Below, piece after piece: positions 1 through 14,759 of a DNA stretch of 14,759 nt. The stretch lies in UHGV virus genome UHGV-0181014, one strand, 5' to 3'. The position numbers were made by a program, and so were the translations under genes. This stretch comes from a virus. The notes beneath the pieces were generated by a model. That model was given only the letters and a program-made list of their open reading frames with translations, was not told where the DNA came from and searched no databases. Each line of letters starts with the position of its first letter. Position 1 is the first letter of the stretch.

Positions 1-5
1 ATTTT

Positions 6-54
6 TGGTCGGCACGAGAGGATTTGAACCTCCGACCCCCGACACCCCATGACG
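6..54 (-). other. Prophage attachment-site core: truncated 3' end (49 nt) of a tRNA-Pro(GGG)-like gene, not a complete tRNA
   Basis: Reverse complement of 6-54 reads CGTCATGGGGTGTCGGGGGTCGGAGGTTCAAATCCTCTCGTGCCGACCA, i.e. anticodon loop, T-arm (GGTTCAAATCC), acceptor 3' strand and CCA of enterobacterial tRNA-Pro(GGG) as I recall it. The matching 5' acceptor strand (CGGCACG) and D-arm are absent from 55-90, so only the 3' part is present, as expected for an att direct repeat at a prophage/chromosome junction. Confidence 0.7.
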
Positions 55-378
55 CCGCTTGTAAAACGCTGAGAACCGTACCATTGCTGGTGGTAGGTAC
101 TATTCATATGTATAAACAAACAGTGCTTTTTTAGCAAAATCTGCTCTATATACATCAATGACTTAGGCGATGGTTTCTCCCCATTCTATTTAAGTGGAAT
201 AACTCAAAGAATCTGTTAGTTTTTCAAGGCGTGATAAAAGTAACAGTATGAGTTTGCAGATAAAAAATTTAGGTGATTTTCGATCAATGTCATAGCTTGG
301 CACTTGGCCGAGTTTAAACTGCATGGGATAACCACACTTTAGCTGCTGTGTGATGGAGTCTCATAAAAGGTGATAATA

Positions 379-1479
379 ATGTGCAATGTTGACGATACAG
401 CTCCCGATACTCAACCACCTCTCGAACTAAGCCAGGATGTGCAGGCGCTGATCAACAACGGTTTGGACTTTCTGGATAAAGCCCGTGAAGAATTGGAAGC
501 ATCAAAGCCTAAGTTCTCCGTCGTCAGCTTCTGGACGGCAGTAGAGATTTTACTAAAAGTACCTCTTGCGCATGAACACTGGTCGTTGGTCTGCAGTCCA
601 AAGAAACCAATAAAAAAGCAGGACTACTTAGCTGGTGATTTTCAGTCTGTGACCTATGAAGAAACTCGTAGTAGGCTTAAGGATGTACTTGAAAAACCAC
701 TAGATAAGGAAACGGATAGTGCTTTTGATAAGGTCAGAAAGCACCGCAACCGCGTGGTTCATTTCTACCATCCAACTTTTACTGCAGATGAACAGCGCCA
801 GATACTCAAAGAACAAGCGGATGCTTGGTTTGCTCTGAACAGGTTATTAAGGGAAGAATGGAAAGTCATTTTTGGAGTCAAACATAATTGGACGCTTGCT
901 TTTGGTGAGACTCGATTAATTAGGGGAAATGAATTTTATGCCCAAGTGCGGCTTAATCAGGTTAAACCTGAATTAGAATCTCTTGCAGAAAAGGGCATGC
1001 TAATTGGTACTTGTAATGAGTGCCATCAGCGTTCGTTAGTAACGGACACTAAAATAATTGGTAATGAAAAACGTGAACTTGAAGTTACGCGATGTAAGGT
1101 TTGCACTAGTGTTTTACGGCAAATTAATCTAGTTTGTCCCGACTGTGGGGAAGTTCAATTGCTTCAGGAGGGGGATGATGTTTTTGAATGTAGACGCTGC
1201 AACTACGCTCGGAGTAGATATGATTTGCTAGATGAGGAAATATTCCATAGTGTGGATGAACAGCTTCTCTCTGCATTTCCTGCTGGATGTACCAACTGCA
1301 TGAACCCTGAAAGTGTATGCAAATTTGGCGAAGGCTATCTCTGTACTCGGTGTTTATCCTATTACACTGAAATTCAGCAATGTAATAGTTGCAACCACTT
1401 GAGCGATAGTGTTCCTGAATTTAGTCATATTCGAGGATGTGAATTTTGTGATGGCGACCAGCGTTATTTTGATGACTGA
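379..1479 (+). CDS. Hypothetical protein: N-terminal HEPN-like domain (R-x4-H motif) fused to four C-terminal CxxC...CxxC zinc-ribbon modules; candidate defence/toxin cargo gene
   Basis: Long ORF 370-1479; preferred ATG at 379 preceded by AAAGG (366-370). Motif RKHRNRVVH (DNA ~736-762) fits the Rx4-6H HEPN signature. C-terminal ~150 aa carry eight CxxC pairs (CNEC/CKVC, CPDC/CRRC, CTNC/CTRC, CNSC/CEFC). GC roughly 40 percent, lower than the prophage backbone. Function is inference only. Confidence 0.6.
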   Translation: MCNVDDTAPDTQPPLELSQDVQALINNGLDFLDKAREELEASKPKFSVVSFWTAVEILLKVPLAHEHWSLVCSPKKPIKKQDYLAGDFQSVTYEETRSRLKDVLEKPLDKETDSAFDKVRKHRNRVVHFYHPTFTADEQRQILKEQADAWFALNRLLREEWKVIFGVKHNWTLAFGETRLIRGNEFYAQVRLNQVKPELESLAEKGMLIGTCNECHQRSLVTDTKIIGNEKRELEVTRCKVCTSVLRQINLVCPDCGEVQLLQEGDDVFECRRCNYARSRYDLLDEEIFHSVDEQLLSAFPAGCTNCMNPESVCKFGEGYLCTRCLSYYTEIQQCNSCNHLSDSVPEFSHIRGCEFCDGDQRYFDD

Positions 1480-1639
1480 ATGGCTATACATAATCTAGGC
1501 CTGTACGGTAGCTATCTTTTGATGGGCGATCCTTACGTAATGTTAGAATTGCATGGCACAGAGCTTCCGTAAGAGGATATTTAGCTTTGTGCCATAGCAG
1601 GGGTCTGAACAAATATTAAAAATGTCTAATAAGATAGTA

Positions 1640-2818
1640 CTAACTAGCTTTAATTTCTCCATGAGGAACTACGACCCAATCGATATGATTTTGGGTATAG
1701 ATCTTTGTTGATTTCGCATCACTATGTGCCATTCGTCCTTGCGGATCGATACCCTGCTGATCGAAAAGATGCGCTGCCAGCGCTCTAATTTCATGAAAGG
1801 TTGGTCTTTCGTCCATCGATAGATGGTCGCATAAACCTAGCTTGTCACGCGTAGCTGAAAATGACCGACTCAAATAGTCCGGTGCAACTTGACTAGGGTG
1901 TGAAACCTCTTTGCTGCGTTTAATCTGCCGTTCAGGGATCCTGTGAACGACAAACGGACTGGCCACATTATCTCGGCTATCGTCTATTATCCGTTTCAAC
2001 TCTTCCCCAATCGGGATTGCAACGTGAGATGCCTCTTTTTTTTGCACTTTCTGCCTGTGGATGTAGAGAGTCCCATAAATACCGTTTTCTGGTTGCGCTA
2101 ACCATACGCACCCGCAGATACCGTCTTTTGGCTCTCTTATGGAGTAACGGATCCGTGAGACCTCCAATCGTGCGTGTGTTGTCTGCAATGCCAAATCCAT
2201 AGCGGTTCGTAACCATGGTTCGGCTGCGCGCCTGATGGCTTTAAAGTTATCAAGTGAAAGGCGCTGGCGCTTCTTCTCTTCTGTCCTACGCATTTTTTTA
2301 CGGGTTGCCGGGTTATCGAACATTAGTGATTCATCGACCGCATAGGAAAATAATTTTTTAAGAAAGCTGACTTTCCTGTTTTGTACGTTTGCTGATGCTT
2401 CGGCATGGTAGTGGTTTATATAGGCGTTCACATGCTCCAGCTCAATATCGCAAGCTGGTATGTTGATGAAGAATTCTTTTACCCTCAGAGCATCGTTGTT
2501 CCAATCGTCGAGTGTATTCTGTGAAGGGCGCTCATTCTCAATCGCCCGCTCCATAATATGATCTACGTGTTCAGCAAATGGTTTTGCTTCCCCAGTTACA
2601 CCGCCAGATTCACGGACAAGTATTTCTACTGAAGGTACATTTTCAGGTCTCATTCTTAGGTTGTATTCACGGGCTATAGCGATCGCTACAGCCCTGTCTT
2701 TACCAATATTCTTTTTTTTCCCAGTTATGAGCGTAAATTTATAAACGCCGCGATCTTTATCGAATATTAGATATTCGGGTAGATGGCGGTATTCTCTTTT
2801 TCTTGGCCTGGCTGCCAT
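1640..2818 (-). CDS. int: Lambda-family tyrosine integrase
   Basis: 392-aa ORF. N-terminus MAARPRKREYRHLPEYLIF...GKDRAVAIAIAREYN parallels lambda Int arm-binding N-terminus (MGRRRSHERRDLPPNLYIR...GRDRRIAITEA). C-terminus PTFHEIRALAAHLF...HSDAKSTKIYTQ parallels lambda Int PPTFHELRSLSARLY...HKSDTMASQY with the catalytic tyrosine. Lies next to the tRNA-derived att core and is preceded by xis. Confidence 0.9.
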   Translation of the reverse strand: MAARPRKREYRHLPEYLIFDKDRGVYKFTLITGKKKNIGKDRAVAIAIAREYNLRMRPENVPSVEILVRESGGVTGEAKPFAEHVDHIMERAIENERPSQNTLDDWNNDALRVKEFFINIPACDIELEHVNAYINHYHAEASANVQNRKVSFLKKLFSYAVDESLMFDNPATRKKMRRTEEKKRQRLSLDNFKAIRRAAEPWLRTAMDLALQTTHARLEVSRIRYSIREPKDGICGCVWLAQPENGIYGTLYIHRQKVQKKEASHVAIPIGEELKRIIDDSRDNVASPFVVHRIPERQIKRSKEVSHPSQVAPDYLSRSFSATRDKLGLCDHLSMDERPTFHEIRALAAHLFDQQGIDPQGRMAHSDAKSTKIYTQNHIDWVVVPHGEIKAS

Positions 2819-2820
2819 GG

Positions 2821-3030
2821 TTAACCCTCACTGATAAGCTGGCGAACCGTATGATTAACCATTGAGTCGACCCCCCATTTTTCAGACTCGCAGACCCAAA
2901 CAGATCCGTCTACGATTTTGCCTGTGAGAAGTCCGTTTTCAACCCAACGTTTAATGGTTCGATTATCCGGGATCGAGTCTTTGGTAAATTCGCGTTTACC
3001 CCATTGACTCGCCTTCATAAGTTTTGCCAT
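2821..3030 (-). CDS. xis: Excisionase (lambda Xis-like)
   Basis: 69-aa ORF immediately upstream of int with a 2-nt gap. Motif TIKRWVENGLL...GKIVDGSVWV resembles lambda Xis (TVRRWVRE...KDGREYL). GGAGAG RBS 6 nt before the ATG. Confidence 0.75.
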   Translation of the reverse strand: MAKLMKASQWGKREFTKDSIPDNRTIKRWVENGLLTGKIVDGSVWVCESEKWGVDSMVNHTVRQLISEG

Positions 3031-3119
3031 GACAGACTCTCCATACAGCCCGGCTGCACCCGGGCTTTAATATAAAACGATTGTGCTTTTAATATATAAA
3101 GAATTGCCTAATTGTTTAA

Positions 3120-4358
3120 TTACTTTTTCATCACCTTTTCAGCAACACCAGCAATTGCCTCAAGTCCATCAAACATTGCTGGTATATTATTTTCATTGTT
3201 TTGTATTGGACTAAAAATAAGAGCATCAAAAGAGTCTAAAACTTTCTCAATAGCAATGTTATTTTTTCTTCTATATTCAACATACCCATCAATGAAAGCA
3301 CATAAGCTGAGCCTTAGATCAATCTGCATAAGTTGAGTTCTTAAAGCCTTCGCTTCTAAATATGAAAGTCTGAAAAAATAAATAATTGCCATCTCAATAG
3401 TAATAAATGGGAATAGAATGAAGATCGCTGAATAATCTTTAGGATATAAATCAGGGAAAGAAAAATGGATTATTACAGCAATCACAGGAGCAATGAATAC
3501 AGTCCCAAATAAATTTTTATAATTCATTTCAGTTGTAGAAAGCTCTTTCTCTTTTTTTTCTTTTATTATGTTAAAACCAGAGCTTAACCCAACAAAATTA
3601 TACTCTGATTTTAAATTTCTCACACGCTCCTCTAGTGCCTTAATTTCATCCCTTGATTCATCCACGTATTTTAAATTAGCATCTGCTTCTAGTTTTCCAT
3701 CTACAATAGCTTTTTTAATGTCATTATAATTATCAGATATTAATGATATGGATGCTTTAGTGTCTTTGTTAATTTTATCAATAGCCAAATCTAAGTTGCT
3801 AGAAATTTCATCGAGAAACTTCCGTTTGTTTTCGTCGAGGTCTGATATAAAGTTTCTAGCATCAGTTAGTTTGTTACTGTTTAGTAACCACTTCATAAGT
3901 GAAATAGGTAGTTTGTCTCGAATCCATGAAAATTGGTATTTACCTTCATTATCCTTGAAAGTGTTTTCTAATAATGTCAATTTGCTGTCTGTGATAAAGT
4001 TAGGCGTGATAATGGAACGAGTGCCTGTCCAATAATAGTACTCGTACAATACTCTTAACAAGGTTGACAAAAAATCAATCTTGTCTTTCTTGTAATCGTC
4101 AACTTGAAATTCCATGTGCAACAATATATTGTCTTGATTAAAACCTGTATTCTCATCTAAATGTTGTGGGTTGTTATTTATTATTGATATAAAAGTCGAC
4201 CATGCTGAGTCCAATGTAGTATAGAATAAAGATATGCTATTATCTTTCTTTTTGGCGGATTTCTTGGACATTTCTTCAAACCTAATAAGATCTCTACTAA
4301 TTATAGTATTTGTTTCCTTTATTGAATTAAGTATTTTATTATCGCTATATAGTCCCAT
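3120..4358 (-). CDS. Hypothetical AT-rich membrane-anchored protein (412 aa, two predicted C-terminal TM helices); candidate abortive-infection or superinfection-exclusion cargo gene
   Basis: Uninterrupted 412-codon ORF in a segment of roughly 30 percent GC, against ~50 percent or more in flanking phage genes. Hydrophobic stretches FGTVFIAPVIAVIIHFSF and AIFILFPFITIEMAIIYFF near the C-terminus; coiled-coil-like segment ESRDEIKALEERVRNLKSEY. AAAAAGG RBS before the ATG at 4358. No recognisable catalytic motif. Confidence 0.7.
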   Translation of the reverse strand: MGLYSDNKILNSIKETNTIISRDLIRFEEMSKKSAKKKDNSISLFYTTLDSAWSTFISIINNNPQHLDENTGFNQDNILLHMEFQVDDYKKDKIDFLSTLLRVLYEYYYWTGTRSIITPNFITDSKLTLLENTFKDNEGKYQFSWIRDKLPISLMKWLLNSNKLTDARNFISDLDENKRKFLDEISSNLDLAIDKINKDTKASISLISDNYNDIKKAIVDGKLEADANLKYVDESRDEIKALEERVRNLKSEYNFVGLSSGFNIIKEKKEKELSTTEMNYKNLFGTVFIAPVIAVIIHFSFPDLYPKDYSAIFILFPFITIEMAIIYFFRLSYLEAKALRTQLMQIDLRLSLCAFIDGYVEYRRKNNIAIEKVLDSFDALIFSPIQNNENNIPAMFDGLEAIAGVAEKVMKK

Positions 4359-4439
4359 TTCTATACCTTTTTAAATATTATTATGTTTCATTGAGTGATG
4401 AGATATTTTACGATCAATTTTCCGGTTTTGCTTCATAAA

Positions 4440-4466
4440 ATCCCCACCCTTTCTAAGGAAGGGGAT
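4440..4466 (-). terminator. Putative intrinsic terminator downstream of the 275-aa early-left gene
   Basis: On the minus strand, imperfect GC-rich hairpin (GATCCCCTTCCTTAGAAAGGGTGGGGA) followed by UUUUAU, starting 10 nt after the stop of CDS 4476-5303. It would insulate the AT-rich cargo gene from early-left transcription. Confidence 0.4.
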
Positions 4467-4475
4467 CTAAATCTC

Positions 4476-5303
4476 TTATGGTTTAAATATTCCGATGAAA
4501 GTGTCCACTGATTCACCCTCGAACTTGCTGATCAGCAAATTGCGGAATTCGTTGGCGATCTCTTCTTCCTGGGCTTCAAGTTGGACGATGCGCAGAACAA
4601 AGCAGGGTTCATCGCTGGTCAGCAGGCTGTTACGCAAACTAAAGCGGCGTTCGCCCATACCTTCATACGGCACACATTTGAACTCGAACGCCACAGGCAT
4701 TACGTCTTTGCTGCTTGCTTCAACGCTTTGCATCAGGGATTTTTTACCAGCGAAATCACCAGTTTCATGGTCCTGCTGGGTTGCTTGCTGGATAGTGATA
4801 CGACGTACAGCCTGAGCTGCCTGGGAAATCTGCATCGTATTGCCATCAGCATCAAACGCCAGCAGGTAATCGCTCCAGTCTTCCAGCCATTCAGCGATTT
4901 GCTTTTGCTTCAGACGTTGACCGTCGATCTGCAGTAGCGCACGGAACGGGGCGGTTTTCTTTAGGGTGATTGAAGCAACGTTATCGGCGTGACCGGGATT
5001 ATCCAGGGTGCCGATGTTGAACACTGAACGAGCGGTCATGTTGTCAGCATCAATGAAGCAACGGGCTGGATCGCTGGCGCTGGCGTAACCTTTAGAATAA
5101 CGTGCGAAGTCGTCAATACTGGTTGTGGTCATTGCGCCACGGAAGCGGAAACGCTCCAGAGAAAAGCGCTCAAGGCTTTCAACGCCAGTACCTTCTGGCA
5201 ATAATGCGGTCGGGCAAGCCAGGTCCTGAATATCATTCAGGTGATAACCGGAAAGAACCAGGTCTTTGACCTGCTTGAAGGTACCGCTGTCTAACTGAGA
5301 CAT
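4476..5303 (-). CDS. Conserved prophage early-left protein, possibly YfdQ-like (DUF2303 family)
   Basis: 275-aa ORF with TAAGGAA RBS. Size and N-terminus (MSQLD...) match my recollection of E. coli CPS-53 YfdQ (274 aa); family assignment is from memory, not a search. Confidence 0.7.
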   Translation of the reverse strand: MSQLDSGTFKQVKDLVLSGYHLNDIQDLACPTALLPEGTGVESLERFSLERFRFRGAMTTTSIDDFARYSKGYASASDPARCFIDADNMTARSVFNIGTLDNPGHADNVASITLKKTAPFRALLQIDGQRLKQKQIAEWLEDWSDYLLAFDADGNTMQISQAAQAVRRITIQQATQQDHETGDFAGKKSLMQSVEASSKDVMPVAFEFKCVPYEGMGERRFSLRNSLLTSDEPCFVLRIVQLEAQEEEIANEFRNLLISKFEGESVDTFIGIFKP

Positions 5304-5359
5304 AAAAATTCCTTATTAACTGATGATCAAAGTGGTATCAGTGAGTTTGTTGTTGCGGA

Positions 5360-5731
5360 TCACTGAGCCGCTTTAAGCTTTCCATCCACCGCGCCAGTGA
5401 TCCCGAACAGCTGACCCTGATCTTCCTGCAGGATGGTGAGCTTCCCGCCTTTGTTGACCCACATCGGGGTTTCGGTTGTGTCCTCTTCGGATGCTTTACC
5501 ACGCGGTGTTGGGGTGCTGTAGTTCAGCTTGTGCTTGATCTTGACGCGCTTCTCTTCAACGGAATTACCCATGCGCTCAAAATCAAATGTGAGGACTACT
5601 TTGCCTTTGTTGCCGTTGTTCAGAACGCCAAGTGCGGTGGTATTAAGTGCTGCCGCGATTTTGTTCATGAACACGCCGGCATCCAGTTCGCCAAGAAAAT
5701 CTGGCACTACGGTCATGCGGTCATTACTCAT
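5360..5731 (-). CDS. Conserved small prophage protein (possibly YfdP-like), 124 aa
   Basis: Six-frame ORF 5360-5818 begins with TTG. The first ATG (5729-5731) has a strong GAGGG RBS 6 nt upstream, giving MSNDRMTVVPDFL.... It lies immediately upstream of, and co-oriented with, the YfdQ-like gene. Confidence 0.6.
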   Translation of the reverse strand: MSNDRMTVVPDFLGELDAGVFMNKIAAALNTTALGVLNNGNKGKVVLTFDFERMGNSVEEKRVKIKHKLNYSTPTPRGKASEEDTTETPMWVNKGGKLTILQEDQGQLFGITGAVDGKLKAAQ

Positions 5732-6236
5732 GGTTTTACCCTCGTTATGGCGGCTGCCACCGCCGAACTTTCTCCATACACAACAGAGAAGGGCACCTGC
5801 ATTTGTCGGCGACTGCAATCGCCATCCTCTTGCCCTGGTGGATTGGGTTATGAGCCCGTCGCCCGGTGATGCCCTTTTCTGTTGTGCCCTGAAAAAGGCT
5901 GGCGGTTACCGGACAAATGGGAAAACACCGGGCCGCCAGAACAGGGAGTTACTTGTTATTGCTTTGGCCTGCTTTTAACCACATCAGGCGCGGTGGTAGG
6001 TATCTTCGGGCGGGGTGCTAAGGGGGTGATTAGCCCTTGACCTTAACACTCCTGCTGGTTTTGGTATTCCTGGTTTGGGTATCGCCACCAGCTATAGGAA
6101 TTTGACTACGAGCTGCGGTTAATCAGGCCGCGCCTCTGTTACCCCTCCCGAAGACACCTGTCAGCGAATCATCCGGTTATTCATATGCCACCGGCGGCTA
6201 CTTCGTGGGCGTCCTGCCTGTTCGCTGTTGATGAAT

Positions 6237-6300
6237 AAAATCTAACTTAACTTAGCTTTTAGATCAAGAAAAAACACCAAACTATTCTTAGCTTGATGTT
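6237..6300 (-). promoter_or_regulatory. Putative oL/pL: operator repeats and leftward early promoter just downstream of the repressor gene
   Basis: CTAACTTAACTTAG (6243-6256) has the same CTAA-N6-TTAG form as CTAATCAAACTTAG in the cI-cro intergenic region. The 10-mer AATCTAACTT occurs here and, inverted, at 7002-7011. Minus-strand -35 TTGATC, 17-nt spacer, -10 TAGATT overlaps these repeats. Confidence 0.4.
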
Positions 6301-6321
6301 AAGAGGAAGGTTAGAGGTGGG

Positions 6322-6948
6322 TTAAAGCTCGTACTGAACGCCTTTGACAACGCCGATGATCAGGCAATTACCGTTAATTGAAATGTTTGGATAGCGTGGA
6401 TTTAAGGGAACTAAGAACTTTTGAGGCCCGTCGATGACAAGTTTTTTTACAGTAGCCTCGTTTGTCCCATCAAGCCTGGCTACGACTATCTTTCCATGAA
6501 GTGGCTCTGCATCTGGATCTACTATGACTGTTGCCCCTTCAGGGATTGTCGGGAGGCCATTAGGGTTTGTCATCGAATCACCTTTAACCTCCAATGCAAA
6601 GGAGCTATCCCCTATGCGGAGTGATGTCTCTATCCACTTATCTACTTCGCTGAAAACTTCTGCTGCTTTACATTCTGTAAACTGTCCAGCCTGAACCCAG
6701 GATATCACCGGAATCCTTCGCATCTTGGTTATCAGATTGCCTTCAAATTCAGTGCCATAAAGTATGTAATCAATTGATGTGTTGAAATACTTTGCAAGTT
6801 TCGCAAGTGACTCGCCTCCTGGCACATTAACGTCTTTTTCCCAATACCCAACCGCCACATCACTAACACCGCAGAACTTACCCAGTTCTTTCTGCGAGGT
6901 TTTGGTTATGCGCCTGAGAGCTTTGATGCGCTGACCGACAGTTTCCAT
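6322..6948 (-). CDS. CI-like prophage repressor (HTH_XRE N-terminal domain plus S24 LexA-like autopeptidase domain)
   Basis: 208-aa ORF. N-terminal HTH (QKELGKFCGVSDVAVGYWEKDVNVP), a probable Ala-Gly cleavage site (VQAGQF), and the S24 Ser/Lys dyad context (GDSM ... VKKL). Divergent from a Cro-like gene with operator palindromes between them. Confidence 0.85.
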   Translation of the reverse strand: METVGQRIKALRRITKTSQKELGKFCGVSDVAVGYWEKDVNVPGGESLAKLAKYFNTSIDYILYGTEFEGNLITKMRRIPVISWVQAGQFTECKAAEVFSEVDKWIETSLRIGDSSFALEVKGDSMTNPNGLPTIPEGATVIVDPDAEPLHGKIVVARLDGTNEATVKKLVIDGPQKFLVPLNPRYPNISINGNCLIIGVVKGVQYEL

Positions 6949-6974
6949 TTGAACACCATAAATAAATTAAAAGG

Positions 6975-7046
6975 CTAAGCAATCTTAGTTTTTATTGACC
7001 AAAGTTAGATTGGTTATTAATATCTAATCAAACTTAGCTAAGGAGG
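6975..7046. promoter_or_regulatory. oR-like operator cluster with rightward promoter (pR) for the Cro-like gene
   Basis: Inverted repeats built on CTAAG/CTTAG half-sites: CTAAGcaatCTTAG (6975-6988), CTAATcaaaCTTAG (7024-7037), CTTAGCTAAG (7033-7042). Candidate pR: -35 TTGACC (6995-7000), 17-nt spacer, -10 TAATAT (7018-7023). AGGAGG RBS at 7041-7046 before the ATG at 7051. Confidence 0.55.
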
Positions 7047-7050
7047 CGTT

Positions 7051-7278
7051 ATGACAACCGATGATATTGAAAACTACTTCGGCAGTACTGAGAAGGTTGC
7101 CGAATTTTTTGGAATCACAAGCGAGGCTGTTTACCAGTGGCGTAATAGAACTGGTCGCCTTATCCCAAAAGGGCGTGCAGCTGAAGCAGCATATCGAACC
7201 GGGGGGAAATTGGTTTTTCATCCCGACCTTTACGAAAAGCGTAGCGATGCTTCAGTAAAACTCAAACCACAGGAATAA
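7051..7278 (+). CDS. Cro-like small HTH regulator (Cro/YdaS-like)
   Basis: 75-aa ORF divergent from the repressor, strong AGGAGG RBS. Motif AEFFGITSEAVYQWRNRTGRLIP fits the Cro/YdaS-type HTH pattern. Confidence 0.75.
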   Translation: MTTDDIENYFGSTEKVAEFFGITSEAVYQWRNRTGRLIPKGRAAEAAYRTGGKLVFHPDLYEKRSDASVKLKPQE

Positions 7279-7288
7279 GGGGGGAGCT

Positions 7289-7840
7289 GTGGGTAACGAA
7301 CCTATTTGGAAAGTCGAACGTCAGCCAGCCTGGCTGGTGGCGGCGATAAAAAAAACGATCACCGATCTTCCTGGTGGTTATGCCGAGGCGGCGGAATGGT
7401 TGGGCGTGACAGAGAACGCATTGTTCAACCGCCTTCGTGTTGACGGCGACCAAATCTTCCCGCTGGGCTGGGCAATGGTTTTACAACGTGCTGGTGGTTC
7501 AACTCATATCGCTGATGCCGTTGCGCGCCATTCTCAGGGCGTATTTGTACCGCTGGCAGATGTTGATGATCTGGATAACGCCGATATCAACCAGCGCCTG
7601 ATGGAATCAATCGAATGGATAGGCCGTCATTCTAATTTTGTACGTAAAGCCACGGCTGATGGGGTGATTGACGCAGAGGAGCGCGCTCAGATTGAGGAAA
7701 ACAGCTATCAGGTGATCGCGAAGTTCCAGGAGCACGTAGCACTTCTTTATCGAGTTTTTTGTGTCGCTGAAAAGAGTGACGCCCGCGAGTGTGCAGCTCC
7801 GGGCGCCTTGGCGAACAACTCTTCGAGTATGGAGAAATAA
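7289..7840 (+). CDS. CII-like phage regulatory protein (183 aa)
   Basis: GTG-initiated ORF directly after the Cro-like gene, the canonical cII position. Sequence such as AAEWLGVTENALFNRLR and size are consistent with the phage CII/CP76-type regulator family as I recall it. Function by position plus weak motif recall. Confidence 0.55.
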   Translation: MGNEPIWKVERQPAWLVAAIKKTITDLPGGYAEAAEWLGVTENALFNRLRVDGDQIFPLGWAMVLQRAGGSTHIADAVARHSQGVFVPLADVDDLDNADINQRLMESIEWIGRHSNFVRKATADGVIDAEERAQIEENSYQVIAKFQEHVALLYRVFCVAEKSDARECAAPGALANNSSSMEK

Positions 7841-8012
7841 TCCGCATGAGCAGTTTAACGGCTTTTAACCGTCTACCGCAACTCAGGATGATCCCGGTTT
7901 CGGGTACTCCGTTGTTTCGGTATGAACGCAGATTATCAAACCGCTGGGTTCCGTGTAACCACAGTAGGGCGGTTTCAATTGTGGGGGTCTATAACCGGAG
8001 GGCAAAACGCCT

Positions 8013-8192
8013 GTGCGCGAACTTAACCGAAGGTTCAAAGACCACCGCGGAGTGTCTGTCCGTGTTATCCGCTGGGAGCCAGAAACACAGCGCGTTATCT
8101 ACCTGCGTGATGGCTACCCGCACGAATGCTTCAGCCCACTTGAGCATTTCAGGCAAAAGTTCAGGGAGATAACGGACGATCATGAGCACTAA
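8013..8192 (+). CDS. Putative small protein (59 aa, GTG start) overlapping the start of the replication gene
   Basis: Frame opens after TAA at 7992-7994. GTG at 8013 preceded by GGAGG (7996-8000, 12-nt spacing). The translation VRELNRRFKDHRGVSVRVIRWEPETQRVIYLRDGYPHECFSPLEHFRQKFREITDDHEH looks protein-like, whereas the overlapping 127-aa frame (7789-8172) is Ser/Ala/Thr/Arg-rich in this interval. It ends 10 nt into the next gene. Confidence 0.3.
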   Translation: MRELNRRFKDHRGVSVRVIRWEPETQRVIYLRDGYPHECFSPLEHFRQKFREITDDHEH

Positions 8193-9039
8193 ATTAACCG
8201 GCTACGTATGGGATGGTTGCGCGGCGTCGGGCATGAAGTTGTCTAGTGTCGCGATCATGGCGCGCCTTGCTGATTTCAGCAGCGATGAGGGGGTGTGCTG
8301 GCCGTCTATTGAAACTATCGCTCGCCAGCTTGGCGCAGGGACGAGCACTATCAGAACGGCAATCGCTAAGCTTGAAAAAGATGGCTGGCTCACGCGTACA
8401 CAGCGCCGTAATGGTAACCGTAATGCGTCGAACGTGTACCGCCTGAATGTGGCGAAACTTCAGGCTGCCGCATTTTCTCAACTGTCAGATTCTGACGCGT
8501 CAAAACCTGACGCATCAAATTTTGACACCTCAAAAACTGACCCGTCGAAATCTGGCAAAAACGGCGGTTTTGACCCGTCAGAATCTGGCGGGGATCCGTC
8601 AGTAAAATCAAAACAAGATCCACAAGTAACTTCAAAACCCTCTTGTCCGGTTGCGGCGCAACCAGACCCTGAAGTCGTGATTACTGACCAGGCAATTTTG
8701 GTTCTGACCCATTTGAACCAGATAAGCGGATCCCGGTATCAGAAATCAAAAACATCCCTGGAGAACATCCGTGCCCGACTGCGTGAGGGATACAGCGTTG
8801 CAGACCTGCAACTTGTTATCGACCTGAAGCATGAACACTGGCACGAGAACGACGAGCAGTACCAGTACATGCGCCCGGAAACGCTGTTCGGCCCGAAGAA
8901 ATTCGAGAGCTATCTGCAAAGCGCTACCCGCTGGGAGCAGAAGGGACGGCCTAAACGCGCTGACTGGGGAGCGAAAAAGCGCGATGTGATGGCTTTTGGT
9001 CCGGTTGAAACAACGATTCCAGAGGGGTTCAGAGGATGA
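8182..9039 (+). CDS. Replication initiator (O-like): N-terminal winged-helix/HTH domain, acidic Ser/Asp linker, conserved phage C-terminal domain
   Basis: 285-aa ORF. N-terminal LSSVAIMARLADFSSDEGVCWPSIETIARQLGAGTSTIRTAIAKLEKDGWL is a typical HTH replication-protein fold signature. The C-terminal ILVLTHLNQISGSRYQ...LVIDLKHEHWHENDEQYQYMRPETLFGPKKFESYL resembles the conserved phage C-terminal domain of replication proteins. Contains tandem iterons; the true start may be 8182 or the internal ATG at 8233. Confidence 0.75.
   Translation: MSTKLTGYVWDGCAASGMKLSSVAIMARLADFSSDEGVCWPSIETIARQLGAGTSTIRTAIAKLEKDGWLTRTQRRNGNRNASNVYRLNVAKLQAAAFSQLSDSDASKPDASNFDTSKTDPSKSGKNGGFDPSESGGDPSVKSKQDPQVTSKPSCPVAAQPDPEVVITDQAILVLTHLNQISGSRYQKSKTSLENIRARLREGYSVADLQLVIDLKHEHWHENDEQYQYMRPETLFGPKKFESYLQSATRWEQKGRPKRADWGAKKRDVMAFGPVETTIPEGFRG
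8478..8640. repeat. Origin-like iteron array inside the replication gene, followed by an A-rich tract
   Basis: Tandem 15-bp units: TGACGCGTCAAAACC (8493-8507), TGACGCATCAAATTT (8508-8522), TGACACCTCAAAAAC (8523-8537), TGACCCGTCGAAATC (8538-8552), TGACCCGTCAGAATC (8571-8585), plus degenerate copies at 8478-8492 and 8586-8600. TGACGCGTCA is itself palindromic. The array is followed by an A-rich stretch (8601-8640), analogous to ori-lambda within gene O. Confidence 0.6.
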
Positions 9040-9917
9040 CGTTAAACAAATATTGCCAGGCGCTGGCGGCACTGCGCAGCAAGCCAGCCCACGAACTGAA
9101 AGAGGTTGGCGATCAGTGGCGGACACCGGATCTGCTTTTTTGGGGTATCAACGCGCTATTTGGTCCATTAGTTCTGGACTTGTTTGCTGACGACGACAAC
9201 GCGAAGTGCCCGGCATGGTACACCGCCGAAGATAACGCGCTGACACAGAACTGGTCTGAACGTCTGGATGAACTGGGCGGCGCGGCTTTTGCCAATCCTC
9301 CATATAGCCGCTCCCAGTATCACGACAAGCAGGCGATCACGGGTATGACACACATCATGAATCACACCATGGACATGCGTGAAAGAGGTGGTCGCTATAT
9401 TTACCTGGTGAAGTCTGCCACAAGTGAAACATGGTGGCCGGAAGATGCCGATCACATCATGTTTATTCGTGGTCGTATTGGGTTCGATCTGCCTGTGTGG
9501 TTTGTACCTGCTGACGAAAAACAGAAACCCACCAGCGCGTTTTTTGCCGGTGCCATAGCTGTATTCGATAAGTCGTGGCGGGGTGAGCAGTTCAGCTATA
9601 TCAACCGCACAGAACTGGAGGAAAAAGGGCGGGCATTTATGGCTTTGGCTCAATTCGCCGTTGGTAAAGAGCAAACAATTGCAATGCAGGCAGCCAGGGA
9701 ACCAGCAGCAACACCGGAAACTGAGTCACGAATCTGGCCTCTCGAGGTTGGTCTGGTGTTTAACCAGGTGGAAGGCGTTGATGTATTGAGCGAGGCCCAG
9801 CAGAACAAACTGAAAGCCAACATCAATCAACTCTGGCTGGAACGAACGGCCACCAGCGAAATTATCACAATTGCGCGTGGTCTTGTTGGCAGCATGCAGG
9901 GGGCAACCCATGCGTGA
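9036..9917 (+). CDS. Phage-type DNA N6-adenine methyltransferase (Dam-like, orphan)
   Basis: 293-aa ORF with the catalytic NPPY motif (FANPPYS) and the N-terminal QWRTPDLLF...LVLDLFADDDNAKCPAWYT signature characteristic of phage N6-adenine methyltransferases. ATGA start/stop overlap with the replication gene. Confidence 0.85.
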   Translation: MTLNKYCQALAALRSKPAHELKEVGDQWRTPDLLFWGINALFGPLVLDLFADDDNAKCPAWYTAEDNALTQNWSERLDELGGAAFANPPYSRSQYHDKQAITGMTHIMNHTMDMRERGGRYIYLVKSATSETWWPEDADHIMFIRGRIGFDLPVWFVPADEKQKPTSAFFAGAIAVFDKSWRGEQFSYINRTELEEKGRAFMALAQFAVGKEQTIAMQAAREPAATPETESRIWPLEVGLVFNQVEGVDVLSEAQQNKLKANINQLWLERTATSEIITIARGLVGSMQGATHA

Positions 9918-11907
9918 GATTATCGTTGATAACTTTGCTGGTGGCGGTGGTGCATCAACGGGTATTGAACTGGCGATCGGACGCAGCGTGGATATTGCGA
10001 TCAACCACGACGAAAACGCCATTGCGATGCACAAGACGAACCACCCTGACACACTGCATTACTGTGAATCCGTATTTGACGTGGATCCGGTAGCCGCCAC
10101 CGGCGGCAATCCTGTTGGCCTGGCATGGTTTAGCCCGGACTGCCGACACTTCTCAAAGGCCAAAGGCGCAAAGCCTGTCAAAAAAGAGATACGCGGTCTG
10201 GCCTGGATTGTTCTGCGTTGGGCACTGGCTAAGCGACCGCGCGTGATGATGCTGGAGAACGTGGAAGAGTTCAAAACGTGGGGACCGTTAATTGACATCC
10301 CGCCTAAACCTGATTTGCCGGAAGCCCTTATGGCGGATTTTATTGGCCCGGTTTACCCTGGAAATAGTCGCCCAGACCCTGCCCGCACTGGAGAAACATT
10401 CAATGCATTTGTCGGCATGCTGTCCACTGGTATTCCTGCTGACCACCCGGCACTGTCAGAGGTTTGTGAGTTTCTGTCTATTGAAAGAGGTAGCGAGCAG
10501 GCGCAACAGCTGGTGGATGGGCTTGGATATGATGTTGATTATCGCGAACTGCGCGCGTGTGATTACGGAGCACCGACGATCCGCAAACGTTTCTTCATGG
10601 TTATGCGCTGCGATGGTTTCCCTATTCAGTGGCCTGCTGTTACCCATGGGGATCCTAAGTCTCTGGAGGTGCAGAGCGGCAGGCTGATGCCATGGCGTAC
10701 CGCTGCGGAATGTATCGACTGGAATGTTCCGGCCCTGTCCATCTTCGACCGCAAAAAACCATTGGCTGAAAATACGCTCAAACGCATCGCTCGTGGTATC
10801 CAGCGGTTTGTGATCGAGAGCGCGTCGCCGTTCATCGTTAAGTGCAACCACACGACGACCAAAGGGAAATACGACTGTTTCCGTGGTCAGGCGCTGGGCG
10901 AGCCTTTGCAGACCATTACGAAAACCCATGGCTACGCGATTGCCGTCCCACACCTGACAAAGTTCCGTACTGGCGCAACCGGGCAGCCCGTTACCGAACC
11001 CGTCCCGACGGTAACCGCTGGCACATCAAAACGTCCAGGTGGGAACGGGCATGCACTCGGGATTGTTGAGGCTGCACTGACGCCATTCCTGGCGGGTAAC
11101 GGTGGTAGTGAATACCAGGCGAAACCGCGCCCGCTGGATAAACCTGCTCATACCATTCTGAAGCAATCCCGCGCCTGTCTTGTTGCGCCAGTGATAGCCC
11201 GCCAGTTTGGGGCCAGCGTCGGCCACCGGGCAGACGAACCGAGCGCAACCATCACCGCTGGTGGTGGCGGTAAATCTCAACTGGTAACGCCTACGCTGAT
11301 CCAGATGGGTTATGGCGAACGACCTGGACAAGAACCGCGTGTGCTGCGGCTGGATAACCCGCTGGGGACCGTTACTGCAGGTGGAAATAAATTCGCGACG
11401 GTGACCGCGTTCCTGGCTAAACACTACGGCGGTAACTATACGGGACCGGGTGTCAGTATGGATGAACCCGCGCACTCAGTGACCACTGTCGACCATCATG
11501 CAGTAGTTGCCTCTCATCTGGTGAAACTGCGTGGAACATGCCGCGACGGGCAACGCCTTGATGTGCCAATGCCAACAATCACTGCTGGTGGCCAACACGT
11601 GGGTGAGGTACGCACATTTCTCGAGACGTATTGCGGGGAAAGTGACGATGAATGGCTGGTAACGATCGATGGGGTTAAATACCAGATCGTTGATATCGGA
11701 ATGCGCATGTTGCAGCCGCATGAACTCTACAAAGCGCAGGGCTTCCCGGATGGTTACGTTATTGATCAGGACTACCGTGGAAATCGCTATGCAAAAGATA
11801 AGCAGGTAGCCCGCTGCGGTAATGCGGTACCACCACCATTCGCCAGGGCGCTGGTGGAGGCAAATCTTCCGGAACTGTGTGCAGTGCAACAGCAGGAGGT
11901 GGCATGA
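9910..11907 (+). CDS. DNA cytosine-5 methyltransferase (large, 665 aa) with an expanded, internally repeated variable region
   Basis: Motif I FAGGGG (DNFAGGGGAS), catalytic Cys context SPDCRHFS, motif VI LENV, motif VIII IRKRFFMV, motif X GNAVPPP near the C-terminus. ATG at 9910 preceded by CAGGGGG and overlapping the Dam-like stop by 8 nt. The ~300-aa region between motifs VIII and X contains about seven repeats of a P-x-T-[IV]-T-A-G-G-like module. Confidence 0.85.
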   Translation: MREIIVDNFAGGGGASTGIELAIGRSVDIAINHDENAIAMHKTNHPDTLHYCESVFDVDPVAATGGNPVGLAWFSPDCRHFSKAKGAKPVKKEIRGLAWIVLRWALAKRPRVMMLENVEEFKTWGPLIDIPPKPDLPEALMADFIGPVYPGNSRPDPARTGETFNAFVGMLSTGIPADHPALSEVCEFLSIERGSEQAQQLVDGLGYDVDYRELRACDYGAPTIRKRFFMVMRCDGFPIQWPAVTHGDPKSLEVQSGRLMPWRTAAECIDWNVPALSIFDRKKPLAENTLKRIARGIQRFVIESASPFIVKCNHTTTKGKYDCFRGQALGEPLQTITKTHGYAIAVPHLTKFRTGATGQPVTEPVPTVTAGTSKRPGGNGHALGIVEAALTPFLAGNGGSEYQAKPRPLDKPAHTILKQSRACLVAPVIARQFGASVGHRADEPSATITAGGGGKSQLVTPTLIQMGYGERPGQEPRVLRLDNPLGTVTAGGNKFATVTAFLAKHYGGNYTGPGVSMDEPAHSVTTVDHHAVVASHLVKLRGTCRDGQRLDVPMPTITAGGQHVGEVRTFLETYCGESDDEWLVTIDGVKYQIVDIGMRMLQPHELYKAQGFPDGYVIDQDYRGNRYAKDKQVARCGNAVPPPFARALVEANLPELCAVQQQEVA

Positions 11908-12290
11908 AACTTGTGCTCCCGTTCCCTCCAAGCGTGAACACGTACTGGCGCGCCCCTAATAAGGGGCCGCTGGCCGGTCGTCACCTCATTAGCGCTGATG
12001 GCCGTAAATACCAGAGCGCTGCCTGCGTGGCGATCATTGAGCAATTACGACGTCTCCCGAAGCCTTCGACTGAATTAGCAGCGGTAGAAATCACTCTGTA
12101 CCCGCCGGATGCGCGCCGCCGGGATATCGATAATTACAACAAAGCCCTGTTTGACGCGCTGACGCATGCGGGTGTCTGGGAAGACGACAGCCAGATTAAG
12201 CGCATGCTGGTGGAATGGGGACCCGTTGTGCCGAAAGGTCGGGTAGAGATAACGATCAGCAGATATGAACCGGCGGGTGCAGCCGCCTGA
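11904..12290 (+). CDS. rusA: RusA-like Holliday junction resolvase
   Basis: ATG at 11904 with AGGAGGTGG RBS, overlapping the methyltransferase stop (ATGA). LPFPPSVNTYWR and RRRDIDNYNKALFDALTHAGVWEDDSQI closely parallel E. coli RusA ([40 protein letters not shown]). Confidence 0.85.
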   Translation: MKLVLPFPPSVNTYWRAPNKGPLAGRHLISADGRKYQSAACVAIIEQLRRLPKPSTELAAVEITLYPPDARRRDIDNYNKALFDALTHAGVWEDDSQIKRMLVEWGPVVPKGRVEITISRYEPAGAAA

Positions 12291-12303
12291 TATGGAGAAA
12301 AGT

Positions 12304-12990
12304 ATGAGCCAGTTAATCGTGAATGGTGTTGTAACAATGTCCAGCCGTGATATTGCGGATCTGGTTCAGAGTAAACACAGTGACGTGAAACGTTCGGCTG
12401 AGCGTCTTGTTGCTGCGGGAATTTTAACCGCGCCGTTGGCGCAGTTCGATTTTGAGCATAACGGTAATGTGTACCAGGAGTATCGTTTTAACAAACGCGA
12501 ATCTCTGGTGATTGTTGCCAGACTTTCACCTGAATTTACCGCCGCGGTTGTCGATCGCTGGCAGGAACTGGAAGAAGGGCAGAGTGTCAGTGTTCCCCGC
12601 TCATTGCCGGAAGCGCTTCGCCTGGCTGCTGATTTAGCCGAGCAGAAAGAGCAACTGACCATCCAACTGGCAGCCGCGGCGCCAAAAGTGGAGTTTGTTG
12701 ATCGTTATTGCTCTGCAAAAGGCTCCATGTCATTCCGGCAGGTAGCCAAATTGCTCAACGCAAAAGAAACTGAGTTTCGTCTGTTCCTTATCGAACGCAA
12801 TATCCTGTATCGCCTCGGCGGCACACTTACCCCCATGGCGCAGCACATTTCCGCGGGAAGATTTGAAGTTAAGACCGGAACATCGAGCACATCCAATCAC
12901 GCATTCAGCCAGACGCGTTTCACTGCCAAGGGAGTACGCTGGATTGGTGGTTTGTGGGCTGAACATATTGCGGGGGGGCAGGCGGCGTGA
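12304..12990 (+). CDS. Antirepressor-type protein (Rha-family N-terminal domain plus KilA-C/ANT C-terminal domain)
   Basis: ATG at 12304 preceded by GGAGAAAAG. N-terminus LIVNGVVTMSSRDIADLVQSKHSDVKRSAERL fits the Rha regulatory-protein pattern. C-terminus FRQVAKLLNAKETEFRLFLIERNILYR...GVRWIGGLWAEHIAG fits the KilA-C antirepressor domain as recalled. Confidence 0.65.
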   Translation: MSQLIVNGVVTMSSRDIADLVQSKHSDVKRSAERLVAAGILTAPLAQFDFEHNGNVYQEYRFNKRESLVIVARLSPEFTAAVVDRWQELEEGQSVSVPRSLPEALRLAADLAEQKEQLTIQLAAAAPKVEFVDRYCSAKGSMSFRQVAKLLNAKETEFRLFLIERNILYRLGGTLTPMAQHISAGRFEVKTGTSSTSNHAFSQTRFTAKGVRWIGGLWAEHIAGGQAA

Positions 12991-13982
12991 GGGCTTTGTT
13001 AACTCCTGAAGTCGCCCATCGCATGGGGATTGTGTTATTTCGTCCCGGCGCGGAACTGATGCACCTCTTCATGCGCGGTCGCGTTCTTCTCGAACCTGAA
13101 CCAGAAGAAATGGCGTCATTCAGTACAGGGGCTGTTCCCGCAGCCATTCAGCCGCTGGCTGATGATCCTGTAATGCGGCAGGTATTCGAGAATGAACGGG
13201 TTATTCAGCGTGCCGGCGGGATTTCTTCCCTTGAGCAATGGCTGAGTTCTCGGTTTGAATGCCAGTGGCCACATTCAACGTGGCACGACAAGAACTTCAC
13301 AACAATGCGGCACCCACCAGGAAGCATTCGCCTGTGCTGGCATTGCGATCACACTTTGTCGGGGCAGCATACCGAACAGCTTGCAGGTATAGCGGCCGGA
13401 AACCTGGTATCCTGGATTCTGGAAGTCATTCGGCGTGATTCTGGTTTTCCCGAGTCGCATATCCTGACGCTTCCGGAACTGTGCTGGTGGATGGTCAGAA
13501 ACGACCTGGCTGATGTTATTCCGGAAAGCGTTGCGCACAAAGGGCTGCGCCTTCCGGATGAGAAGATCCGCTCTGTCATGAGGGAAAGCGACATAGTGCC
13601 TTCCTCGTCAGCAACCAGACTCGTGCAGGAGAAGGCGAAGAAGATCCTCACGCTCTCTGTTGATCCTGAGTCGCCAGAGTCTTTTATGCTCAGGCCAAAA
13701 CGTCGCCGCTGGATAAATGAGACGTACACCCGCTGGGTTAAAACACAACCCTGTGAGTGTTGCCGACGGCCAGCAGATGATCCGCACCATATCGTAGGGC
13801 ACGGTATGGGGGGGACAGCAACAAAAGCCCATGACCTCTTCGTGATCCCTCTGTGCAGAGAGTGCCACGACGAGTTACACGCCGATGTACCAGCATTCGA
13901 GCAGAGGCATGGTACGCAGCTTGAGTTGCTACTGCGTTTTATGGATCGGGCGCTGGCGATCGGCGTAATTGCGAAAGCTTAA
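12987..13982 (+). CDS. DUF968/YdfU-like nin-region protein with C-terminal HNH-like Cys/His motif
   Basis: 331-aa ORF with GTG start overlapping the preceding stop (GTGA). C-terminal CECCRRPADDPHHIVGHGMGG...CRECHDELH is a zinc-binding HNH-like arrangement. Position and size match prophage YdfU-type proteins as I recall them. Confidence 0.65.
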   Translation: MRALLTPEVAHRMGIVLFRPGAELMHLFMRGRVLLEPEPEEMASFSTGAVPAAIQPLADDPVMRQVFENERVIQRAGGISSLEQWLSSRFECQWPHSTWHDKNFTTMRHPPGSIRLCWHCDHTLSGQHTEQLAGIAAGNLVSWILEVIRRDSGFPESHILTLPELCWWMVRNDLADVIPESVAHKGLRLPDEKIRSVMRESDIVPSSSATRLVQEKAKKILTLSVDPESPESFMLRPKRRRWINETYTRWVKTQPCECCRRPADDPHHIVGHGMGGTATKAHDLFVIPLCRECHDELHADVPAFEQRHGTQLELLLRFMDRALAIGVIAKA

Positions 13983-14001
13983 GCGTATGGAGAAGAACAG
14001 G

Positions 14002-14601
14002 ATGACACCACATCAACGCCGCAATCATTTTGAAGCACTGGGTAAAGCAGCATCTGCTCCGCGTAAAAGCTGGCTGGGTAAAAGCATTCTTCTGACGGGG
14101 ATCCAATCCGGATGGATTAAATCCCTGCTCACCACATGGGGCGAGGGTGTGGGAGGAAAAACTGCACCCCGTATGCCGCGGGGCCACGCCTGCTGGAATG
14201 TACTAAGAGGTCGTAACTGGTCAGATAAGGCACTGGACCGCTTCACTGCTGCGTTGAATCAGGCACGAGAAGAGGGATTCCGTGGACAGCAGGCAATGAA
14301 CAGGGCACATAGTATTCTGTGGCCGCAGTCACCTGCCAGTGTGATTGATGAAGCCCTGCATAATGATGATGTCGATTTTGTTGAGCAATGCGTGCTACAG
14401 GCACTGGATATAAACGATCCTGTTTATGTTGTTGGTCTTCAGTATTACACCACTCGAAAAAAAATCTCAGACATCACCCGGGAACTGCAGGTAATCGCGC
14501 CATGGCTGACTGATGGGGAGGCAAGAAAGCGCGTGCGCTGGTGCCTGGAAATATTCAGAGCGAAGACCTTTTTGGCAGCACGAAAACAGTTATCTGAATA
14601 A
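14002..14601 (+). CDS. Putative late-gene antiterminator (Q-like), assigned mainly by position
   Basis: ORF 13969-14601 begins with TTG. The ATG at 14002 has GGAG 9 nt upstream. It sits after the nin-like genes and immediately before a candidate late promoter. I do not recognise a lambda-Q zinc finger, so the assignment is positional and tentative. Confidence 0.4.
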   Translation: MTPHQRRNHFEALGKAASAPRKSWLGKSILLTGIQSGWIKSLLTTWGEGVGGKTAPRMPRGHACWNVLRGRNWSDKALDRFTAALNQAREEGFRGQQAMNRAHSILWPQSPASVIDEALHNDDVDFVEQCVLQALDINDPVYVVGLQYYTTRKKISDITRELQVIAPWLTDGEARKRVRWCLEIFRAKTFLAARKQLSE

Positions 14602-14650
14602 ACACACTGAACTCAATTTTAGCTATTAATGCTATTTCTTGATAATGGAG

Positions 14651-14678
14651 TTGAAAATGGGCCAGAAAATCAGATAAT
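14651..14678 (+). promoter_or_regulatory. Candidate late promoter (pR'-like) downstream of the Q-like gene
   Basis: -35 TTGAAA (14651-14656), 16-nt spacer, -10 GATAAT (14673-14678), in the AT-rich intergenic region after the stop at 14601. Confidence 0.35.
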
Positions 14679-14759
14679 CCATTCATGCTTGGCAGAGCTG
14701 CGCCGCGATGGCAGCGACGAAAAGCGAACAATTTGAATATAACGAGAACCCCGCCAGCG

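Follow-up and report, generated by a model that had tools for sequence, protein, structure and literature searches.

A member of the HEC-08 defence family very probably carried as a moron between the att core and the integrase gene of a lambdoid prophage

What is a protein-coding gene of low guanine-cytosine (GC) content doing between the attachment (att) core and the integrase gene (int) of a lambdoid prophage, and does it belong to any named family? The question is raised by the virus genome UHGV-0181014, a stretch of 14,759 nucleotides (referred to below, at its full length, as the window), which holds at positions 379-1479 of the plus strand an intact open reading frame (ORF) of 366 amino acids (aa) followed by a stop codon. 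A preliminary description, made from the letters alone, had read this ORF as a HEPN-like protein with four zinc ribbons, possibly a single-gene defence system carried as a prophage moron, and had not recognised the domain combination as a named family. In our analysis the ORF is the coding sequence of HEC-08, and the window very probably encodes an intact member of this family, which a lambdoid prophage carries as a moron in its att-int slot.

The identification is carried by two comparisons. The PADLOC model HEC-08 (PDLC04162) is matched end to end (E 8.9e-167, 552.7 bits), with residues 12-365 of the window protein aligning to profile positions 7-357 of 358, and a BLASTP alignment to the HEC-08 protein of Escherichia coli ECOR52 (WP_150698383.1, 366 aa, the reference sequence taken from Table S2 of the preprint of Payne et al.) gives 304 of 366 identical residues (83%) with 0 gaps, a full-length frame, the same motif residue numbers and every invariant family residue kept. 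The protein also matches phrog_37794 of PHROGs, a family listed there as of unknown function, at E 3.8e-229. HEC-08 was described by Payne, Hughes, Fineran and Jackson (bioRxiv 2024, doi 10.1101/2024.01.29.577857), who, according to that preprint, chose nine gene families embedded in Hma defence systems (HEC standing for Hma-embedded candidate), cloned one representative per family together with the promoter region native to it, and exposed E. coli to the BASEL collection and classic coliphages. Seven of the nine systems, HEC-08 included, are reported there to have given defence in E. coli; mutation of H128, the histidine of the Rx4-6H motif, abolished defence by the ECOR52 protein, and HEC-08 was found to be structurally similar to the Shewanella HEPN toxin SO_3166. 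As judged by sequence, the window gene is a close orthologue of a named and experimentally validated defence protein, so that the family is already known and the window copy is not new; by analogy, the need for H128 may carry over from the ECOR52 protein to the window allele.

The proposal of a single-gene defence is thus strengthened, through the full-length PADLOC match and the 83% identity to a validated protein whose H128 mutant, as the preprint has it, loses defence, whereas the view that the domain combination was unnamed does not stand: HEC-08 is in PADLOC-DB v2, and the EC042_2821 HEPN family, which overlaps DUF3644, had been catalogued in fusion to zinc ribbons (ZnR) by Anantharaman et al. 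(2013, Biol Direct 8:15). None of the outcomes that the preliminary description had named as speaking against its reading, such as an N-terminal domain unlike HEPN or unconserved R and H residues, was found.

Within the gene, the reading depends on four features:
368-373, plus strand: Shine-Dalgarno sequence AGGTGA, 5 nt before ATG379
427-990, plus strand: N-terminal all-helical HEPN domain of the DUF3644 / EC042_2821 type, about residues 17-204
745-762, plus strand: Rx4H catalytic motif R123-N-R-V-V-H128, invariant in homologues
1012-1449, plus strand: eight CxxC pairs in a C-terminal array (C212-C357), putatively forming four Cys4 zinc ribbons

The longest frame listed for this region in a six-frame ORF search runs from 370 to 1479 on the plus strand; we take ATG379 to be the true start, giving 366 aa, on the strength of the AGGTGA ahead of it and of the equivalent methionine start in all homologues (32 of 32 in the alignment), and AAGGAG or AAGGTG stands at the same distance in the upstream regions of the closer homologues from E. 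coli and Klebsiella. The Rx4H motif that the preliminary description had pointed out is present and invariant, but its numbering as R126 and H131 had been counted from GTG370, and the true residues are R123 and H128, within residues 120-132 of the window protein (RKHRNRVVHFYHP). Across an alignment of 33 homologues, 43-80% identical to the window protein, H122, R123, N124, V127 and H128 never vary. By our estimate a protein of such size would contain about one Rx4H motif by chance, so the evidence lies in the invariance of the motif and in its place within the HEPN fold, not in the motif alone. All 16 cysteines of the eight CxxC pairs (212/215, 239/242, 253/256, 271/274, 304/307, 322/325, 335/338 and 354/357) are invariant in the same alignment, and the pairs all lie within the C-terminal 155 residues; the four zinc-ribbon modules that had been proposed from these pairs are thereby supported as Cys4 zinc-ribbon-like units predicted to bind metal. 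The DUF3644 HEPN model of PADLOC matches residues 17-165 (E 4.4e-71), and an AlphaFold2 model built from the homologue alignment, with a mean predicted local distance difference test score (pLDDT) of 85 and a predicted template modelling score (pTM) of 0.72, is all-helical in its N-terminal half (helices 19-204) and rich in beta-hairpins in its C-terminal half. Foldseek searches with the predicted structure returned weak E-values (best 0.39), and a sequence-profile search of the PDB found no solved relative, with weak Cys-rich matches only.

That the gene is cargo of the prophage becomes apparent from its surroundings, which are as follows:
6-54, minus strand: 3' part of a tRNA-Pro gene, the att core copy at the prophage end, identified by eye
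55-184, no strand: conserved phage att arm, common to related prophages
183-1639, no strand: insertion of about 1.46 kb of cargo between att and int
1640-2818, minus strand: lambda-type tyrosine integrase, convergent with HEC-08
2821-3030, minus strand: excisionase-like gene (xis), 69 aa, adjoining int, with a weak helix-turn-helix (HTH) match

The sequence TGGTCGGCACGAGAGGATTTGAACCTCC... in the region of window 6-54 was recognised by eye as the reverse complement of the 3' half of tRNA-Pro; neither ARAGORN nor Rfam found an intact tRNA, Rfam giving no matches over the whole window, and the first 30 nt of the fragment stand at the matching place in related prophage loci of E. coli, of Klebsiella and of the window's own species. 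The att arm that follows is 84-93% identical to that of E. coli prophages and 88% identical to that of Klebsiella pneumoniae prophages with the same type of int, and about 80% identical to the phages Flotzy and Eeyore. The integrase matches Pfam Arm-DNA-bind_1 and Phage_int_SAM_5 above their cut-offs, Phage_integrase under its cut-off, and phrog_1 (integrase) at E 2.4e-29, and the excisionase-like gene is kept beside it in all related prophages. The att core is also that of related E. coli prophages, whose int is of the same type and about 80% identical and which sit at the tRNA-Pro site next to yejO and narP. At least 24 contigs, from different samples, encode a protein identical to that of the window, always within this prophage, with ccm-narP adjoining in most of the loci shown. 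The prophage that carries the window gene is integrated at a tRNA-Pro gene, probably in a Citrobacter. The GC content is 42.3% in the window ORF, 45.2% in int and 52.2% in the rest of the prophage (4476-14759), which bears out the lower-GC ORF convergent with int from which the preliminary description had started.

A separate observation concerns the other side of the att site. On one contig (L003, 1-9350), which has a stretch 100% identical to window 1-4500, att is preceded not by narP but by the tail genes of another phage, namely lambda I- and J-like genes, after which come dinI, an SRAP gene and umuDC-like genes. Such an arrangement suggests tandem elements at the same tRNA-Pro site.

The slot between att and int is occupied differently from one relative to the next. 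Only 23 bp separate the homologues of window 1-182 and 1640-3063 in E. coli F467 (L013), from which follows an insertion of about 1.46 kb at window 183-1639. The same slot holds a 289-aa gene in E. coli strain LD91-1, a 283-aa gene in strain EC20-4B-2, and in strain 100181 a 256-aa RelA_SpoT-domain protein together with a 118-aa partner. The coordinates of this alternative cargo in the related E. coli prophages are:
Locus L001, 4491-5360
Locus L011, 1747-2598
Locus L012, 1749-2876

The RelA_SpoT-domain pair looks like the toxic small-alarmone-synthetase (toxSAS) toxin-antitoxin pairs, and the uncharacterised genes of 283-289 aa could be further, as yet unknown defences; none of these occupants is matched by PADLOC. 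Since relatives carry other cargo in the same place, the att-int slot is a variable moron site, and the proposal that the window gene is a prophage moron is supported by the cargo-free relative, by the differing cargo of the others and by the contrast of 42% against 52% GC. For the filler on either side of the gene (185-310 and 1501-1639) the comparisons made gave no other match. Three K. pneumoniae prophage loci (L017-L019) have the same tRNA-Pro fragment, an att arm at 88% and an int at 81% identity, and a HEC-08 gene in the slot, which is intact and 72% identical in nucleotides and 69% in amino acids to the window copy. Between the Citrobacter-type and the Klebsiella prophages the gene is therefore more diverged than the att arm and int that enclose it, which suggests either allelic replacement or faster evolution than in the flanks, or else that the arrangement is old.

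Beyond this prophage type the family is widespread. A search of 5.8 billion proteins yielded 233 homologues, nearly all of 345-369 aa, from Enterobacterales, the closest being a Citrobacter protein at 99% identity to the window protein. At the DNA level a homologue is present in 384 of 5426 complete E. coli genomes, in 338 of them at a coverage of at least 80% and about 82% identity (Nissle 1917 included), and 206 plasmids carry one; a tblastn search of deposited phage genomes gave no HEC-08 match, though PHROGs has phrog_37794. The unit that recurs is short:
311-1500, plus strand: HEC-08 cassette, the gene with 68 bp upstream and 21 bp downstream, common to unrelated contexts

Over exactly this span the window is 81.7% identical in nucleotides to loci in E. 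coli Nissle 1917, E08 and AZ159 and on a Pantoea megaplasmid, and the neighbours of HEC-08 differ completely in every context examined; the limitation of the shared DNA to 311-1500 indicates that there is no conserved partner gene and that HEC-08 is a single-gene system. The contexts include a genomic island of Nissle 1917 with dynamin-like and patatin-like genes and, among other E. coli copies, an island with a reverse transcriptase gene and the middle of a lambdoid prophage; the Pantoea megaplasmid and an IncR plasmid, where the gene stands beside relBE; an integrative and conjugative element (ICE), with HEC-08 among tra genes; a Rahnella island that also encodes a reverse transcriptase, a kinase and HEPN_Toprim_N; and the ends of Citrobacter braakii prophages, about 1.4 kb from a tRNA-Pro fragment. 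These are the contexts of mobile elements and defence islands, and the presence of homologues on prophages, ICEs, plasmids and defence-island-like regions supports our reading. In the C. braakii genome (CP101082.1; L026, L027) a 51%-identical homologue is present twice, at places separated by about 25 kb; at about 1.4 kb from each copy stands a perfect match, 52 nt long, to the first 52 bases of the window, which comprise the tRNA-Pro fragment and 5 flanking bases.

How might such a protein act? HEPN RNases such as HepT, AbiV, Csm6 and Cas13 dimerise, form a composite active site and cleave RNA independently of metal. By analogy, the N-terminal HEPN domain of HEC-08 would dimerise to build a composite R-x4-H site that could cleave host RNA, phage RNA or both without a metal ion, and it is on this analogy that we infer the targeting of RNA. 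The array of four Cys4 zinc ribbons probably takes the place of the antitoxin or sensor that two-gene HEPN systems encode separately; as no antitoxin or sensor gene accompanies HEC-08, the fused array is the best candidate for the element of binding and control, and it might keep the nuclease silent until the sensing of a phage nucleic acid or protein releases or targets it. Cleavage of RNA would then stop translation, and infection would abort or stall. The gene lies outside the int-xis operon and convergent with it. With a ribosome-binding site of its own and a short leader that is conserved, this arrangement is consistent with expression in the lysogen; expressed there from its short upstream region, the gene would shield the host, and hence the prophage, from other phages. 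The gap of 160 bp between the convergent window gene and int holds a 13-bp inverted repeat at 1553-1595, and a scan of it found no terminator.

Several points weigh against this account. All experimental data on defence come from the 83%-identical ECOR52 protein, not from the window allele or its host. In the literature searched, as far as the sources were available, no report was found of RNase activity, dimerisation, a trigger or an abortive outcome for any HEC-08. A consensus scan detected no sigma-70 promoter upstream of the window gene, so that expression in the lysogen is an assumption. The HEPN and zinc-ribbon matches in Pfam are all under the gathering thresholds; with sub-threshold matches of these two kinds only, Pfam and NCBIfam by themselves would leave the protein unnamed.

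Comparison with described systems places the window protein closest to ECOR52 HEC-08, with which it shares the length of 366 aa, a DUF3644-type HEPN domain, R123-x4-H128, eight CxxC pairs and the single-gene arrangement; the difference is one of setting, the family having first been found embedded in Hma systems, whereas the window copy is att-int cargo of a tRNA-Pro-integrating lambdoid prophage in another genus. The EC042_2821/DUF3644 family has in common with it a HEPN domain with Rx4-6H, a ZnR fusion and a link to conflict systems (Anantharaman et al. 2013), but that description is purely computational and covers several architectures (fusions to winged HTH, restriction endonuclease and ZnR domains), of which the window protein has the ZnR array only. 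HepT/MNT (type VII) systems, for example Shewanella SO_3166 (PDB 5YEP), are about 10% identical, and the window protein is some 230 aa longer and has the fused zinc ribbons. Such systems also have an adjacent antitoxin gene encoding the nucleotidyltransferase MNT, whereas the window gene has none as far as int and xis are concerned, where no such domain was found, the mechanically called flanking ORFs of 42-50 aa being outside that scan. AbiV and other single-protein HEPN abortive-infection RNases (PDB 9BJ5) are likewise about 10% identical, and AbiV has no zinc ribbons. Ishtar1 and Ishtar2 (bioRxiv 2026, doi 10.64898/2026.07.06.735840) resemble the window protein in an N-terminal HEPN domain of the DUF3644/DUF4145 type, in being single genes and in residing on mobile elements, but their C-terminus is an alpha/beta domain of unknown function without a CxxC array, and the activity reported for them is plasmid loss rather than phage restriction.

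Recombinases stand beside HEC-08 in more than one place. A 200-aa integrase lies divergently upstream of HEC-08 in E. coli and Pantoea and is identical in protein sequence in both, and an intact 277-aa XerD-like recombinase lies directly upstream of the copy on the Enterobacter IncF plasmid OW849196 (L016, 6107-6940). The 3' end of such a XerD-like gene survives as a relic in the non-coding DNA that precedes the E. coli and Pantoea copies; the relic is 61% identical over 74 aa (tblastn E 1e-28) and has a stop codon in frame and Asn at the position of the Tyr of 'STEVY', the presumed catalytic tyrosine:
Locus L008 (Nissle 1917), about 8760-8985: XerD-like relic
Locus L014 (Pantoea pPANA10), about 6760-6985: XerD-like relic

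Upstream of the window gene no such relic is detectable at the protein level (E 3.8). The recombinases found near HEC-08 copies are hardly related to one another, and we read the relic as a trace of cassette movement, not of a role in recombination. It is possible, though not likely, that HEC-08 originally travelled as a two-gene integrative cassette of a tyrosine recombinase and HEC-08, which, if true, could explain its arrival in recombinase-proximal slots such as the att-int site of the window. At the OW849196 locus there are also genes for a DUF4145 HEPN protein and for one of HEPN_Toprim_N type.

This neighbourhood could be taken to mean that the window gene is an addiction or stabilisation module, or an accessory of site-specific recombination, and not an anti-phage gene, for it stands beside tyrosine recombinases in several unrelated settings (the lambda-type int, with which it converges in the window and in Klebsiella, the 200-aa integrase and the XerD-like enzyme), with the XerD-like relic upstream of the E. 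coli and Pantoea copies. We consider this highly improbable: the three recombinases are scarcely kin, none lies within the 6-kb flanks examined in the ICE (among its tra genes), in the Rahnella island or at the C. braakii prophage ends, related prophages integrate and persist without HEC-08, and the tested homologue, according to the preprint, defends from a plasmid without any recombinase, while linkage to an integrase is expected for any cargo at the edge of a mobile element. It is also very unlikely that other mobile DNA, conjugative plasmids in particular, is the main target, as is reported for the Ishtar proteins, which share an N-terminal HEPN domain (DUF4145 or DUF3644) and cause loss of plasmid RP4; HEC-08 homologues are indeed frequent on conjugative plasmids and ICEs, but the C-terminal domain of the Ishtar proteins is a different one and not a zinc ribbon, the phenotype demonstrated for HEC-08 in the preprint is anti-phage, and no anti-plasmid assay of HEC-08 was found in the literature searched. 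Such an activity would in any case be an additional one, not an exclusive alternative.

Nor does the gene look like an inactive, decaying passenger. The missing recognisable promoter and the unmatched filler at 185-310 and 1501-1639 would suit a passenger, but the frame is full length with all invariant residues kept, the exact protein recurs on the at least 24 contigs from different samples, and the 69%-identical copy in the same slot of the Klebsiella prophages is intact, which speaks for long-term maintenance under selection; decay is accordingly an extremely remote reading. To the last alternative, that the protein is the type I restriction subunit HsdR, as most homologues are named in NCBI and UniRef, we assign virtually no probability. 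Dozens of homologues bear the label 'hsdR' or 'HsdR', the EC042_2821/DUF3644 HEPN family occurs in restriction-modification operons (Anantharaman et al. 2013), and HEC-08 was, according to the preprint, discovered embedded in Hma systems. The protein, however, has only 366 aa as against about 1000 in HsdR, lacks any match to helicase, ResIII or HSDR_N models in Pfam and NCBIfam, folds as HEPN plus zinc ribbons, and has no hsdM or hsdS nearby in the window, so that its domain content already refutes this reading. The label on a family of 366-aa HEPN and zinc-ribbon proteins is probably a mis-annotation that has spread from neighbourhood-based naming; members so named include the homologues P0001-P0116 and the records H20, H41, H44, H47, H49 and H54.

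For the discovery of defence systems the intact HEC-08 gene of the window holds little that is new, as the family already has a name, a PADLOC model and experimental validation. Its value is confirmatory and contextual: a real defence gene was deduced from raw sequence alone, and HEC-08 is seen to travel not only within Hma systems but also in tRNA-Pro-integrating lambdoid prophages, as cargo of their variable att-int slot. As context the analysis adds that the moron slot takes interchangeable cargo, that a recombinase relic records the history of the cassette, and that the public databases probably contain a mis-annotation.

The remainder of the window holds further genes of accessory type. 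A 412-aa ORF at 3120-4358 on the minus strand, with 30.7% GC against 52% in the backbone, lies between xis and a DUF2303/YfdQ-like early gene; it has no Pfam or PADLOC match, matches phrog_9373 (unknown function) and has, by eye, two hydrophobic stretches near residues 283-333. Its homologues are all labelled 'hypothetical', are mostly from Enterobacterales and are prophage-borne; in Cronobacter they occupy the same slot, in Serratia they lie in the nin/Q region. The ORF may be a second moron or an exclusion gene. At 9036-11907 on the plus strand, a Dam-family adenine methyltransferase (293 aa) overlaps the start of a protein of 678 aa that contains a C-5 cytosine methyltransferase domain, the two probably being orphan methylases with an anti-restriction role, and downstream of them follow RusA, an Ant/Rha-type antirepressor and a DUF968/HNH protein.

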